Shown here: positions 15,620 through 17,556 of the stretch, piece after piece
How the letters are laid out: the number at the start of each line of letters is the position of its first letter
How positions within the stretch are numbered: position 1 is the first letter of the stretch
Source: Escherichia coli
Lineage (GTDB): Bacteria > Pseudomonadota > Gammaproteobacteria > Enterobacterales > Enterobacteriaceae
Reading direction: 5' to 3' (one strand)
Length of the DNA: 64,000 bases
NCBI GenBank assembly: GCA_031701365.1
Contig: GCA_031701365.1_4118.1
Notes under the pieces: model-generated
Told to the model about the DNA's origin: nothing
Database searches by the model: none
What the model saw: only the letters and a program-made list of their open reading frames with translations
Position numbers and translations under genes: made by a program

Positions 15620-16236
15620 TTAAACACATATAGACAGGGGAAGCTCCGTAGTGGAAGCATTATACAGGCTTTAACATATGTTGCATATGTTAAAATTCAG
15701 CCTGGACAAATGCGATCACTAGGATTCTCCCCAGGCTAAACCCCGTAATCATAGGTAGTCATAAGTAATCATATATAAACATTTATATGAGCACAGTAGA
15801 ATCACAGAATGATTATATATGATTCAGTACTGATTAGTATAGACAAGATTGCTCAAGAATGCACGGAAATGTGTGTGAATGATTCAGTACTGATATGCCA
15901 CTAAGTAGGCAGAGGAAGTCTGCCGTACTTTGTAGTTTCCAAGCTCCTTTTCCATTTTGCAAATTACATCAAATGTAATCAAAAGTAATCACGCAATGAT
16001 TAGTACTGAATTATTACTTTCACCTTAATTTCAATTACCCCTTGAGGCTCCAGCAAAAAGTTGGTTAGTACTCCATCCTAAATCTCGATCCTAAAAATTT
16101 TGGAGTACCTATGAAATAAAAGTTGGATCTTCGAAAGTTGAAATTTACGTTGGGACATATAGGATTTGTGGGATATAATGAGTTTTGTAGCGATACAGAT
16201 TATACGATTTCAGTACTGAAAGATGAAAGAAAGTTA

Positions 16237-16264
16237 TTGACTTTATGATTCAGTACTGTATAAT
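16237..16264 (+). promoter_or_regulatory. orphan sigma70-like promoter
   Basis: TTGACT-16-TATAAT with no ORF downstream. Confidence 0.4.
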
Positions 16265-16675
16265 GTTCTACATAGGGTGATGAGTTGCTGCGAACAATTC
16301 ATTTACTCTACCTCCTGTCGTGAGACAGTACAGAAAAGATAGTTCCTCCTGTGGTGGTACATCTTTTTGAACCTCATATGAAAATTGTAATAACAGTACT
16401 GATATTAACAGAATGGTGTCAGTACTGATTTTAATCTAAAGCATTATGCCACCAGCTTGTGCTGGTGGATTCCCTCTAACAGTATTCAGTACTACATGAT
16501 GGTCTTCATCCTCCTAGGGTAACATAGTGAGGGCTATGATGGCAGTACTGAATACTCCCTTTCAAAAGATAGATCTATGGTATAGTACTGACGGATTTTG
16601 GGTGTAGTTACCCTGGATGGATTTTGGGCGTAGATATGTCTAGCCCTCCAGAAGTCTGGAAGTAAAGATGGCTAT

Positions 16676-16815
16676 CCATCTAGACGGCTAAACGGCTAGA
16701 TTTCTGGATGGCTGGATGGCTAGACGTTTGGACGGCTAAACGGCTAAACGGCTAAACGGCTAAACGGCTAAACGGCTAGATGGTTACACGTCTGGAAGTA
16801 TAGACGGCTAAATCA
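16676..16815. repeat. iteron cluster
   Basis: about five tandem copies of 8-bp ACGGCTAA (16731-16780), TGGATGGC x2, dispersed TAGACGGCTAAA and TCTGGAAGTA copies. Confidence 0.7.
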
Positions 16816-17556
16816 AAATTTTATTTTGTTTTTTCCAATAGTTCCCCTACCGCGTGGGGATAGTTTCCCCGCAGTATCAGGAGTTAGATTTTTCTGAATC
16901 TGGAATTATTATCTTATAAACTGGGGGCAATGTCAACGGCCAGGACGGATATTTTTAAAATTTTTTCAGTACTGAATTTTGGGCGTAACTATGCACCCGG
17001 TGGGCTTGAGTCTTTCTCGACTTGATGGAACTATTATACAGTACTGAAAAAATAAAGCAATACCCTGGAAGCAAAAAAGTTTTAATTAATTTGCTTGCTA
17101 TCCTGGGCCGGACTATGGTACTATATTTCAGTACTGAGAAAGTGCGTTGACCTGCTAGGGTGCGGGAGTGTATCCTTTTTTTATATCTTGAATTTTGGGC
17201 GTAATTCCGCACCCCCTGGGGTATCCGCTTTCTCGCGTCTATGTAGTAATTATACGCTTTTTCAGGATCAAGTCAATACCTAAAAACAAAATAATTGAAA
17301 ATAATTTAATGCGTTTAAACGGCATGTAACGCCCTGGATTGTTGGGAGTGGGGCAAATGTATAGCTTAGGTGTATTAATGCGTTAGAATGCGTCTGAGGC
17401 CGTTTTACGGGGTATAGGGATGATTTGGTGGATTGATTCAGTACTGAATAATAGTACTACTATATAGAAAGATAGTTCCCCTGGATGGTTGCAGTACTGA
17501 ATGACAGTTCCCCTATATAGAAAGAAAACTATTTTAAAAGTACATGTAGAAAGTAC

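Follow-up and report, generated by a model that had tools for sequence, protein, structure and literature searches.

The terminal region of the phage genome

The window, i.e. the whole stretch of DNA analysed here, is 64 kb long (contig GCA_031701365.1_4118.1, assembly GCA_031701365.1) and its source is a RaK2-like jumbo coliphage (Asteriusvirus). The whole genome of its relatives is about 350 kb long and their proteome comprises about 600 genes. Paralog arrays and repeated promoter cassettes are numerous in the phage genome, whose GC and AT skews lack an origin-like switch. A direct terminal repeat of about 20 kb is predicted at 15,904-36,098 (plus strand) by homology to the terminal repeat of phage fEgEco12, which is 20,993 bp long and was defined by PhageTerm and digest. 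The repeat also bears true Chi sites, which are clustered and all in one orientation.

The terminal non-coding region (15,780-17,520) contains 17 copies of the palindrome AGTACT and 12 exact copies of the form CAGTACTG, or about 10 per kb, where its composition leads one to expect about 0.6 and 0.02. The original prediction of about 15 copies agrees with these counts. An extended 16-nt version, (T/A)ATGATTCAGTACTGA, is present in seven copies on the plus strand within 15,818-17,447 (starting at 15,818, 15,878, 16,244, 16,576, 17,032, 17,122 and 17,432) and has a 12-14-bp palindrome, TTCAGTACTGAA, as its core. The predicted genome end at 15,904 would lie 11 bp past the copy at 15,878-15,893. 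An iteron array of about 20 eight-bp units, GGCTAAAC, GGCTAGAC or GGATGGCT, occupies 16,650-16,810 on the plus strand and is flanked by GGATTTTGGGYGTA boxes at 16,592, 16,618, 16,973 and 17,189 on the same strand. Pectobacterium phage CBB has the same iteron-and-box layout. The Rfam search of the non-coding region returned only three matches, all far below the gathering scores of their families, and a known RNA family was therefore rejected for this region.

Early promoters and terminators

With promoters modelled as TTGnnn-N16-18-TATAAT, the terminal repeat contains 30 strong matches, 27 of which carry AGTACT in one of two registers. In register -27, the commonest class (16 of the 30), the word starts 27 nt before the -10 hexamer and runs into the -35 hexamer (AGTAC-TTGCAA). 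In register -7 (12 promoters) its start is 7 nt upstream of the -10 hexamer (AGTACTg-TATAAT). The earlier claim that the word occurs in most early promoters, either in an upstream element or abutting the -10, is thereby confirmed for both arrangements. Register -7 is exemplified by the promoter at 16,237-16,264 (plus strand, TTGACT-N16-TATAAT), in which AGTACT at 16,252-16,257 abuts the -10 hexamer, and register -27 by the promoter at 17,552-17,584 (plus strand), in which AGTACT at 17,552-17,557 covers the first T of the -35 hexamer TTGCAA. The promoter at 21,259-21,291, on the same strand, has both registers, the sites at 21,259 and 21,279 being 20 bp apart. An AGTAC-TTGAC junction is also found in promoters of CBB, a member of the distant genus Mimasvirus (AAAAGTACTTGAC).

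The spacing of AGTACT pairs peaks at 20-22 bp. Four inverted-repeat pairs had been singled out at early promoters, and all are present. The pair AAAGTACTAT...ATAGTACTTT (18,667-18,694; copies at 18,667 and 18,689, 22 bp apart) lies upstream of a TATAAT, and the pair AGTACTaTTGACA...AGTACTggCATAAT (23,984-24,011; copies at 23,984 and 24,006, 22 bp apart) lies around the -35 and the spacer. The other two flank TTGACA...TATAAT promoters at 27,200-27,236 (copies at 27,200 and 27,231, 31 bp apart) and 30,964-30,993 (copies at 30,964 and 30,988, 24 bp apart), the latter with a third copy of the word beside it, starting at 31,015. As in operators, the sites hold fixed positions in the core promoter and have dyad symmetry, with pairs spaced as expected for one face of the helix. 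The fixed registers, which recur in CBB, the 20-22-bp pairs and the long terminal palindromes all fit the dedicated DNA-binding regulator that had been proposed.

The word is also part of the stems of six terminator hairpins, GCCAGTAC-(3-4 nt)-GTACTGGC, found on the minus strand between 3,156 and 9,334 (3,156-3,174, 4,369-4,387, 5,622-5,641, 6,886-6,904, 8,106-8,124 and 9,316-9,334), as had been stated for minus-strand hairpins. Each hairpin follows a gene for a paralog of about 390 amino acids, and the annotation of phage G17 has terminators at the corresponding positions.

Size and exactness of the excess

The over-representation of the palindrome, for which a count against shuffled sequence had been proposed, exceeds any background model. 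The window contains 253 copies of AGTACT, where dinucleotide-preserving shuffles of the 64 kb give 18.95 +/- 4.2 and at most 31, and 57 copies of CAGTACTG, where they give 0.85 +/- 0.88 and at most 3. The full genome of a relative has 919 AGTACT versus 119 expected (7.7-fold) and 204 CAGTACTG versus 3.4 expected. The excess is not local, a point that the original prediction had missed. The density in the terminal repeat (6.4 per kb) is the highest in the genome, but the excess runs through the whole window (1-64,000) and through the approximately 350 kb of the relatives, and most of it is intragenic. The word is missing from two blocks of the window, 36.1-40.4 kb and 42.6-50.1 kb.

The excess is exact. 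Compared with the 7.7-fold enrichment of AGTACT, its one-mismatch neighbours are each enriched no more than 2-fold (observed/expected 1.03-2.0, with AGTATT/AATACT at 1.07), except for AGGACT/AGTCCT (0.52). Such intolerance of mismatches is characteristic of restriction-modification systems. A repair drive of the very-short-patch type was rejected, as the one-step neighbours are not depleted. TTCAGTACTGAA is the commonest 12-mer genome-wide, and the information in the sequence around AGTACT is confined to a C at -1 (44%) and a G at +1 (47%).

These flanks bear on the possible involvement of a host protein, the nucleoid-occlusion factor SlmA, which phage DNA might titrate or recruit. The SlmA site, GTGAGTACTCAC, contains an AGTACT core, and phages of Enterobacterales show the enrichment, which the Pseudomonas relative lacks. 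However, the phage disfavours the flanks that SlmA requires (G at -1 in 10% and C at +1 in 6% of the copies, against backgrounds of 18% and 16%), and the outer GT..AC preference is absent. SlmA sites were rejected because of these wrong flanks, and a role of the protein is highly improbable.

Distribution among phages and in the host

The excess is 6.7-8.0-fold in RaK2 and GAP32 (samples of 50 kb each), CBB (100 kb) and EC22.5-2; it has been retained by at least three phage genera, and the hosts used for isolation belong to four. Phages PA5oct (1 versus 13 expected) and rV5 (2 versus 12 expected) are depleted of AGTACT. A 50-kb sample of E. coli K-12, representing the host, contains 3 copies (0.06 per kb), where an equal length of phage DNA has about 130, and in the samples taken the word is about 40-100 times denser in phage than in host. 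AGTACT is a signature word of the RaK2-like jumbo phages and not a local operator motif.

Word counts show that GCGC and about 25 other hexameric palindromes have been eliminated from the phage genome, which has lost nearly all other palindromes of the restriction type. GCGC is absent from the phage, and the host sample has about 7 copies of it per kb. GGTACC and CGTACG have likewise been purged. A restriction-modification-related constraint, the second of the originally suggested causes, may or may not be at work: an exact short palindrome is typical of its targets, yet a target would be avoided in unprotected phages, as AGTACT is in rV5 and PA5oct, and here it is hoarded while other palindromes are purged. 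The AGTACT excess and the GCGC void together make phage and host DNA almost perfectly separable by two short words. This contrast suggests that self and non-self are told apart by sequence in this phage, whose bases are not hypermodified like those of T4.

The papers on RaK2, CBB, phAPEC6, Sharanji and fEgEco12 and a 2026 review of jumbo phages make no mention of the motif, and full-text literature searches returned nothing on CAGTACTG/AGTACT in phages or on ACU-specific nucleases. No published description of the AGTACT signature, or of the ACT-free zone described below, was found in the literature searched.

Selection on the word

About 70-85% of the AGTACT copies are inside ORFs (174 of the window's 253 and 788 of the relative's 919), in all three frames. 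Ser-Thr pairs are written AGT-ACT in 382 of 726 cases versus 112 expected, and the other two reading frames of the word are used 150 times versus 23 expected and 249 times versus 51 expected. The excess over the expectation from codon usage is 5-6-fold in every frame, and ST, VL and QY dipeptides exceed expectation about 1.4-fold. The AGTACT copies override codon choice and are selected at the level of DNA, so strongly that codon usage and even the use of dipeptides have been rewritten throughout a 350-kb virus.

In the comparison with fEgEco12, AGTACT sites are conserved at a rate of 0.86 in the terminal repeat, where the value for any hexamer is 0.70, and at a rate of 0.62 at 50-64 kb, where it is 0.37; in the non-coding region all 16 of 16 sites are conserved. 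The sites are under purifying selection. They are also more evenly spaced than chance, with a coefficient of variation (CV) of 0.88 versus 1.00 +/- 0.04 when sites are placed at random; among unrelated control hexamers, the eight with the most even spacing have CVs of 1.16-1.34, and the control median is 1.30. Over 285 kb the largest gap measures 2.1 kb (P = 0.0035). The sheath gene has 6-9 copies in each of four genera, only 1-3 positions being common between genera, and the density of the word is maintained across genera by positional turnover. The intragenic location in all frames, the even spread and the turnover indicate that AGTACT is a genome-wide coverage word and not the mark of an operator regulon.

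A functionless by-product of restriction avoidance acting on codons, of mutation bias, or of the inflation of paralogs and promoter cassettes would fit the extreme palindrome avoidance of this genome, its many paralog arrays and its repeated promoter cassettes. It would not give a 5-6-fold excess over codon usage in each frame, an excess of similar strength in four genera that includes single-copy core genes, or sites conserved above background and more evenly spaced than chance. Moreover, the neighbour words are not depleted, and other palindrome-avoiding phages deplete AGTACT. Coding artefact and paralog inflation were rejected on the frames, the codon comparison, the single-copy core genes and the four genera. 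The by-product explanation is largely refuted, and we give it scarcely any credence.

The dedicated regulator fares differently as the whole story. Operators would be confined to regulatory regions, and the intragenic majority of copies, their even spread and their turnover across genera do not conform to this. Because the excess is genome-wide and mostly intragenic, the promoter-operator reading covers only a part of the picture.

The ACT-free zone

Block B1 (36,099-40,400, plus strand) is an array of paralogs of about 70 amino acids in which AGTACT is absent and GTAC is at chance level; its few TGTACT copies are homologous A-V-L codons. It is separated from block B2 by an island (40,401-42,632, plus strand) with 16 AGTACT. 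Block B2 (42,633-50,135, plus strand; 7,504 bp) has no GTACT and is entirely free of ACT on the sense strand, whereas outside it ACT occurs every 49 bp on average. The banned ACT is the 3' half of AGTACT. It is excluded from one strand, its complement AGT being at normal frequency. AGTACT is replaced at equal density by AGTACA, which is present in 38 copies, in all frames and about 14-fold enriched, on one strand only, and leaves 5'-TGTACT-3' whole on the opposite strand. The half-site polarity of B2 is due to the ACT ban, and strand polarity of AGTACT-type words is seen only in this zone.

The ban covers in-frame and out-of-frame ACT in about 18 genes, all in one direction, and is kept across 23% sequence divergence, while the borders of B2 fall within ORFs. 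Many of the genes are members of a large 'FQxS' paralog family, which extends beyond the block. Pfam and PHROGs assign the B2 genes to families of unknown function only, with no RNase-like protein in the block, and a promoter and terminator scan of 35.8-51.5 kb found nothing that delimits the zone. The possibility that B1 and B2 are polar half-site blocks flanking an origin was rejected, because the TGTACT of B1 are paralog codons and there is no skew switch.

A sense-strand ban in a unidirectional gene block, in-frame and out-of-frame alike and held across 23% divergence, might reflect a signal in RNA. A phage or host endoribonuclease would cut at ACU, and best at AGUACU, ensuring a fast turnover of most transcripts, especially the early ones, and the 42.6-50.1-kb operon would be ACU-less in order to survive, like ACA-less mRNAs under MazF. 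mRNA interferases with three-base specificity are known, and mRNAs without the motif are resistant to them. Early genes have the highest AGTACT density. Against such a signal, the non-palindromic AGTAC words are unbiased by strand (412 versus 385), so that a genome-wide sense-strand bias was rejected. Many copies of the word, those upstream of the -35 and those in the terminal non-coding region, are not expected in sense RNA, the palindromy would be a coincidence, the borders of the zone are inside ORFs, and the block lacks an RNase-like protein. We know of no ACU-specific E. coli toxin. We regard this explanation as very unlikely. If the reader nevertheless were an ACU-specific RNase, the zone would be an operon recoded by nature to withstand the nuclease.

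The finding of the ACT-free zone with its AGTACA prompts another explanation, in which a T4-type primase (gp61 homologue) starts at 5'-ACT-3' and AGTACT is its optimal full site. The primase of T4 starts at 5'-GCT/GTT-3' and uses one cryptic base and a five-base primer. The six letters of AGTACT would similarly represent a cryptic 3' T and five templating bases and give the pentamer pppGUACU. Since the word is a palindrome, a start would be supplied on both strands, and one site per few hundred bp would be selected for lagging-strand priming in either direction. In B2 top-strand priming would be forbidden, while the bottom strand retains TGTACT.

Several observations accord with a primase. The ACT-free zone suggests single-strand reading of a trinucleotide, which is the 3' half of the enriched word, and the change to AGTACA sits farthest from the supposed cryptic T. 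The even spacing, without a gap above 2.1 kb, fits the scale of Okazaki fragments. Homologues of gp61, gp41, gp43 and gp32 and T4-like recombination genes have been reported in the RaK2-like clade. The scarcity of AGTACT in the 50-kb K-12 sample suggests that such priming would be largely phage-specific. However, a perfectly palindromic optimum would have to be coincidental or specially adapted, and a primase gives no reason for the fixed promoter registers or the 12-16-bp symmetric terminal extensions and no rationale for a one-strand priming ban over 7.5 kb. The skews show no origin-like switch, and since ACT already occurs about every 50 nt, the requirement for the hexamer has to be assumed. 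No primase is known to us to have shaped a genome 8-fold. A primase start site is, in our judgement, an unlikely explanation of the word, but it is the main rival of the one favoured below.

The ACT exclusion in B2 is compatible with the primase family, and other single-strand readers would give the same pattern. In its broader form, the proposal is that a single strand-reading enzyme, most plausibly a gp61-type primase, with ACT as its minimal and AGTACT as its optimal site, has sculpted the genome of about 350 kb. This is rather improbable. If it were true, a palindromic word at Okazaki-scale spacing on both strands would make phage replication self-specific, and the erasure beside the terminal repeat would mark a 7.5-kb zone one strand of which is never acted on. 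The ACT-free zone is in any case a concrete, falsifiable handle on a trinucleotide-specific activity.

A reader of the palindrome

The explanation we favour, tentatively and with a probability of roughly 0.4, is a clade-conserved, phage-encoded reader of the exact duplex palindrome, for which AGTACT would be both an early-promoter operator and a genome-wide self mark. The reader would be a phage protein that recognizes the AGTACT duplex as a symmetric dimer, with CAGTACTG as the preferred and TTCAGTACTGAA as the strongest form. It might be a small repressor-like binder or, possibly, an enzyme that modifies the site, paired with a protein that reads the mark. The long, presumably high-affinity copies near the genome end and the iterons might seed the assembly of a complex that processes the ends, packages the DNA or replicates it. 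The -35-edge and -10 copies in roughly 30 early promoters would be operators, most plausibly shutting early transcription once the protein builds up. At the approximately 800 intragenic copies, which are evenly spread, the same protein would be loaded at intervals of about 150-400 bp, and the loaded protein might mark the phage chromosome as self for protection, organization or replication.

Some observations are at odds with such a reader. A 6-bp core with a sharp one-mismatch drop would be expected of a restriction-modification enzyme sooner than of a transcription factor. The AGTACA of B2, in which one half-site is broken and which is kept at full density on one strand only, is left unexplained by a symmetric dimer, and shared ancestry of duplicated cassettes could in part produce the fixed promoter registers. 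Of a proteome of about 600 genes, 61 small ORFs from the terminal repeat and the sequence beside it were searched with Pfam, which detected no DNA-binding fold and no recognizable reader among them. The two methyltransferases of the relative look CpG-type and Dam-family, and no AGTACT-type enzyme was identified among them. The m5C enzyme resembles the CpG-specific Dnmt3, and the Dam-family enzyme, a 173-aa PF05869 protein, is conserved in the clade.

The latter enzyme would suit the view that AGTACT is a private epigenetic word, the phage equivalent of Dam/GATC. A phage methyltransferase would methylate AGTACT, and the mark would then be read for strand discrimination or repair, a use that calls for one site per few hundred bp, for origin- or pac-like control at the terminus and at promoters that the word overlaps at the -35 or -10. 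GATC serves coverage, an iteron-side cluster, promoter elements and terminase cutting in E. coli and P1, and the coverage by AGTACT, its cluster at the iterons and genome end, its promoter sites and its sites near the terminase cut run parallel to these uses. The exact 6-bp palindrome with its sharp fall-off is a specificity of the restriction-modification kind. The purging of other palindromes and the depletion of AGTACT in rV5, PA5oct and the K-12 sample imply that the site is presumably dangerous unless protected, and methylation would account for the toleration of about 900 ScaI/Eco255I-type sites. Methylation of AGTACT is nevertheless hypothetical; CpG methylation is the only kind reported for RaK2, consistent with a Dnmt3-like m5C enzyme. 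The purging of GGTACC and CGTACG speaks against a methylase acting at the level of GTAC, the one-mismatch neighbours, which are not depleted, give no sign of a methylation-linked repair drive, and the AGTACA of B2 is again unexplained. An epigenetic word is quite unlikely on this evidence.

The identity of the postulated duplex reader would open unexplored jumbo-phage biology, in early-promoter control, end recognition, replication or protection, and the protein could become a new sequence-specific tool.

Comparison with known systems

The ACT-free zone, taken by itself, resembles ACA-less, MazF-resistant mRNAs in that a trinucleotide is fully absent from the sense strand. It differs in that the word is ACU, the zone extends over 7.5 kb and about 18 genes, and its borders are inside ORFs; we know of no nuclease matching ACU. 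The primase sites of T4 (5'-GTT/GCT) and T7 (5'-GTC, with extended pentanucleotides) have a one-strand trinucleotide core and an extended primer sequence. ACT resembles the GCT/GTT of T4 in ending with a pyrimidine followed by T, and the clade has a gp61 homologue. Neither genome-wide enrichment nor a strand-specific exclusion zone is, to our knowledge, known for a primase site.

In the stoperators of cluster A mycobacteriophages, one repressor site is reused along a phage genome, promoters included. Stoperators are 13 bp long, asymmetric and orientation-dependent, and number about 25-35 copies, mostly intergenic, whereas the word described here is a 6-bp palindrome with about 900 copies, mostly intragenic. 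Chi (RecBCD), KOPS (FtsK) and DUS/USS share with AGTACT a selected density with turnover, even spacing and self/foreign discrimination, and DUS also has inverted copies in terminator stems. These words are asymmetric and strand-polar, while AGTACT is palindromic and without such polarity.

Dam/GATC in E. coli and P1, with its roles at oriC, pac, promoters and in MutH action, is a palindrome used for coverage, with a cluster at iterons and packaging sites and copies at -35 and -10. GATC needs no enrichment because it has only 4 bp; AGTACT is enriched, and its methylation is hypothetical. HIP1 of cyanobacteria (GCGATCGC) is likewise a short, exact palindrome in tens-fold excess, found clade-wide in non-coding DNA and in all frames of coding DNA. 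AGTACT differs from HIP1 in being viral, in its 6-bp AT-rich core, in the lack of an evident cognate methyltransferase and of depleted neighbours, and it adds to the HIP1 pattern a structure of promoter registers and of the genome end.

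Position in the phage genome

A megablast search with window positions 15,700-18,700 gave 24 near-full-length matches, 87-95% identical, among 156 phage records. Coliphages of about 350 kb belonging to the genus Asteriusvirus (121Q, PBECO4, G17, phAPEC6, Sharanji, fEgEco12 and others) make up the listed full-length matches, and their annotation in this region comprises only hypothetical proteins and predicted terminators. Phage fEgEco12 has direct terminal repeats of 20,993 bp, confirmed by PhageTerm and restriction digests (PMC13070987). Its position 1 aligns with window 15,904 and the end of its repeat with about 36,098. 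By homology to these ends, the window is divided into the right unique end of the genome (1-15,903), the terminal repeat (15,904-36,098) and the left unique region (36,099-64,000). The repeat consists of a 1.7-kb non-coding leader and about 50 small early genes, each of which has a strong promoter and a hairpin. The stretch 15,780-17,520, where the original prediction counted about 15 copies of the palindrome AGTACT, is placed by the alignment at the physical genome end, as its non-coding leader; it holds 12 copies of CAGTACTG and 17 of AGTACT.

Between 17,583 and 36,000, each small early gene is preceded by a consensus promoter of its own and, in its 5' leader, by a stem-loop of the GGGGAA...TTCCCC type, a unit resembling the promoter-early-stem-loop cassettes known from T4-type phages. 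Among the domains that Pfam recognises in the ORFs of this stretch are a DksA/TraR zinc finger, a GNAT acetyltransferase and a ParE-like toxin domain. Copies of the E. coli Chi sequence GCTGGTGG cluster within the terminal repeat and nearly all share one orientation: eight are on the plus strand (16,461, 23,288, 27,453, 28,915, 30,180, 31,853, 33,260 and 34,722) and two on the minus strand (16,449 and 23,226). RecBCD entering at the repeat's right-hand end would be stopped by this orientation. The terminal repeat of Pectobacterium phage CBB has seven Chi on the same strand. On the minus strand at 787-11,661 lie nine tandem paralogs of about 360-430 residues, which the annotations of relatives call 'DNA condensation protein' (RCC1-like). 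A CAGTAC hairpin terminator of nearly identical sequence lies at the end of six of them. Two further large families of tandem paralogs occupy 36,100-43,020 (about 70 residues, L-G-T-N-x-Q-E motif) and 42,250-64,000 (100-220 residues, E-E-x-F-Q-x-S motif), the latter being found again elsewhere in the genome (305-310 kb in the close relative EC22.5-2).

Abundance of AGTACT and absence of other words

Genome-wide counts were made on the complete genome of EC22.5-2 (351,992 bp), in which AGTACT occurs 919 times against 119 expected and CAGTACTG 204 times against 3.4. CAGTAC is the most over-represented of all hexamers in this genome. AGTACT is enriched in every 5-kb bin, the terminal repeat having 28-39 copies per bin, the roughly 100 kb next to it 13-23 and mid-genome 4-12. 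In dinucleotide-preserving shuffles of the window, no shuffle approaches the observed counts (57 CAGTACTG against 0.85; 253 AGTACT against 19). In 50-kb samples, the excess is 6.7-7.1-fold in Klebsiella phage RaK2, Cronobacter phage GAP32 and CBB; the related Pseudomonas jumbo phage PA5oct has one copy against 13 expected and the unrelated coliphage rV5 two against 12. For E. coli K-12, the 50 kb sampled contain three against 11.6; relative to this host sample, the density of the word is thus about 40-fold higher in the phage and about 100-fold higher in the terminal repeat. An explanation through a host factor is largely excluded.

Other words are missing. GCGC is absent from both the window and the EC22.5-2 genome (294 expected), as are about 25 of the 64 hexameric palindromes from the latter, including GGTACC, CGTACG, CTGCAG, GGATCC and GAGCTC. 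RaK2, GAP32 and CBB lack GCGC and 23-30 of the 64 in samples whose 50-kb length is too short to establish true absence; PA5oct and rV5 do not share these absences. The K-12 sample has 342 GCGC per 50 kb, which makes GCGC a host-only word. Outside the region corresponding to the window, EC22.5-2 encodes a small, 173-residue Dam-family methyltransferase (PF05869), which overlaps the start of a zinc-ribbon (CapR/DUF723) ORF (91,151-92,454), and a 286-residue m5C methyltransferase closest to the Dnmt3 catalytic domain (307,362-308,222). The latter fits the CpG methylation reported for RaK2 DNA (PMC3622015). The C-terminus of the zinc-ribbon ORF looks nuclease-like by eye. That AGTACT is a private methylation word, analogous to GATC for Dam, would agree with its reuse in several settings and with the tolerance of about 900 ScaI-type sites; this reading is rather improbable.

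Selection at the DNA level

AGTACT is selected at the DNA level. It lies inside ORFs, in all three frames, in 174 of 253 cases in the window and in 788 of 919 in EC22.5-2. AGT-ACT spells 382 of 726 Ser-Thr dipeptides, where codon usage predicts 112; in the remaining two frames the counts are 150 (23 predicted) and 249 (51 predicted). As dipeptides, ST, VL and QY are also enriched, about 1.4-fold. Between phages the word is better conserved than arbitrary hexamers of the same regions (0.86 versus 0.70; 0.62 versus 0.37), and in the non-coding leader 16 of 16 copies are conserved. The tail-sheath gene carries 6-9 copies per 2.66 kb in each of four genera (about 0.9 by chance), of which only 1-3 positions are common to different genera, indicating that the density is maintained by turnover. 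A by-product explanation is largely excluded. No one-mismatch neighbour is depleted in the EC22.5-2 counts, and a repair-drive origin is thus unlikely.

The spacing is more even than chance (CV 0.88 versus 1.00 +/- 0.04), the eight most evenly spaced unrelated hexamers having CVs of 1.16-1.34 and the control median being 1.30. The longest gap within 285 kb is 2.1 kb (P = 0.0035). The specificity is sharp: one-mismatch variants are enriched at most 2-fold, and in the flanks only a preceding C (-1, 44%) and a following G (+1, 47%) are informative, a G before and a C after the word being disfavoured. This sharpness resembles the specificity of restriction-modification systems and excludes SlmA sites, for which GAGTACTC is required.

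Promoters and the genome end

AGTACT is present in 27 of the 30 strict sigma-70 promoters of the terminal repeat. It covers the first T of the -35 hexamer in 16 promoters (AGTAC|TTGCAA) and abuts the -10 in 12 (AGTACTg|TATAAT); several have both copies, 20 bp apart. In a further class a pair spaced 22 bp brackets the -35. CBB promoters retain AAAAGTACTTGAC. The placement is genuine operator-like anatomy, although the duplicated promoter cassettes have a common ancestry. The two promoter arrangements and four inverted pairs described originally were all recovered, together with six minus-strand terminator hairpins, GCCAGTAC...GTACTGGC; the original observation is correct in every particular.

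The terminal leader contains seven nearly palindromic 16-nt copies of (T/A)ATGATTCAGTACTGA, each with AGTACT inside. One of the seven, a TATGATTCAGTACTGA copy, ends 11 bp short of the genome end that homology to fEgEco12 predicts at 15,904. The 16-nt copies adjoin a series of about 20 iterons of 8 bp, GGCTAAAC and its variants (16,650-16,810), and four GGATTTTGGGYGTA boxes (within 16,590-17,210). CBB has a matching layout. The region at 15,904 and 16,590-17,210 may serve to control packaging or replication.

The ACT-free zone

In the whole genome AGTACT is missing from only two stretches, both directly after the left terminal repeat. The first, a paralog array without enrichment of the word, occupies 36.1-40.4 kb. 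The second (42,633-50,135, plus strand) has no ACT on the sense strand for 7,504 bp, a gap of 153 times the mean spacing of one per 49 bp outside it; the runner-up among trinucleotide gaps in the window reaches 18 times. The zone recurs in EC22.5-2 (58,328-66,539; 8,213 bp) and fEgEco12 (29,020-37,311; 8,293 bp), where the block is only about 77-78% identical, and was not found in 100 kb of CBB, including about 27 kb after its terminal repeat. Its borders fall within ORFs, and its genes are paralogs of unknown function like those outside. Within it AGT, the complement, is normal, TCT is reduced 3-fold and GTACT is absent. AGTACA is present in 38 copies that use all frames and are as dense as AGTACT is elsewhere, which argues that the pressure for the word persists but that the final T is forbidden. 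ACT is the exact 3' half of AGTACT, and because half-words make up only 2 of the 64 triplets, the void and the enrichment are probably linked. The zone could be a nuclease-proof (ACU-less) operon or a stretch from which a strand-specific DNA process is kept away. An RNA-level nuclease signal would fit the void; being at odds with the palindrome and with the untranscribed copies, it is very unlikely to explain the word.

T4 primase starts at GCT/GTT. The strongest rival, though an unlikely one, is a T4-type primase start site with an ACT core, the hexamer comprising a cryptic T and the template for a five-base primer. It covers the link to the ACT void as well as the even, Okazaki-scale spacing, and leaves the promoter registers and the palindromic extensions unaccounted for. 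T4-like genes for replication and recombination, that of the gp61 primase among them, are present in the RaK2-like clade (PMC5259590).

A candidate reader and known signature words

The extended copies at the genome end, the fixed early-promoter registers and the even coverage elsewhere are best explained, with a probability of about 40%, by a conserved phage-encoded protein that reads the duplex palindrome as an early-promoter operator and a genome-wide self mark. The extended copies would be its high-affinity sites, the promoter copies its operator, and the evenly spread copies would mark the genome as self through the same protein. A Pfam search for such a protein in 61 small ORFs from the terminal repeat and its flanks found no DNA-binding fold, and the AGTACA copies of the ACT-free zone are not accounted for by a symmetric reader.

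None of the papers on RaK2, CBB, phAPEC6, Sharanji and fEgEco12 mentions the word, the GCGC void or the ACT-free zone, nor does a 2026 review of jumbo phages, and full-text searches gave no mention either. A palindromic phage signature word used in promoters and at the genome end appears to be new. As a kind of feature, selected hyper-abundant signature words are known from HIP1, Chi and DUS, and AGTACT is a palindromic phage version of these.
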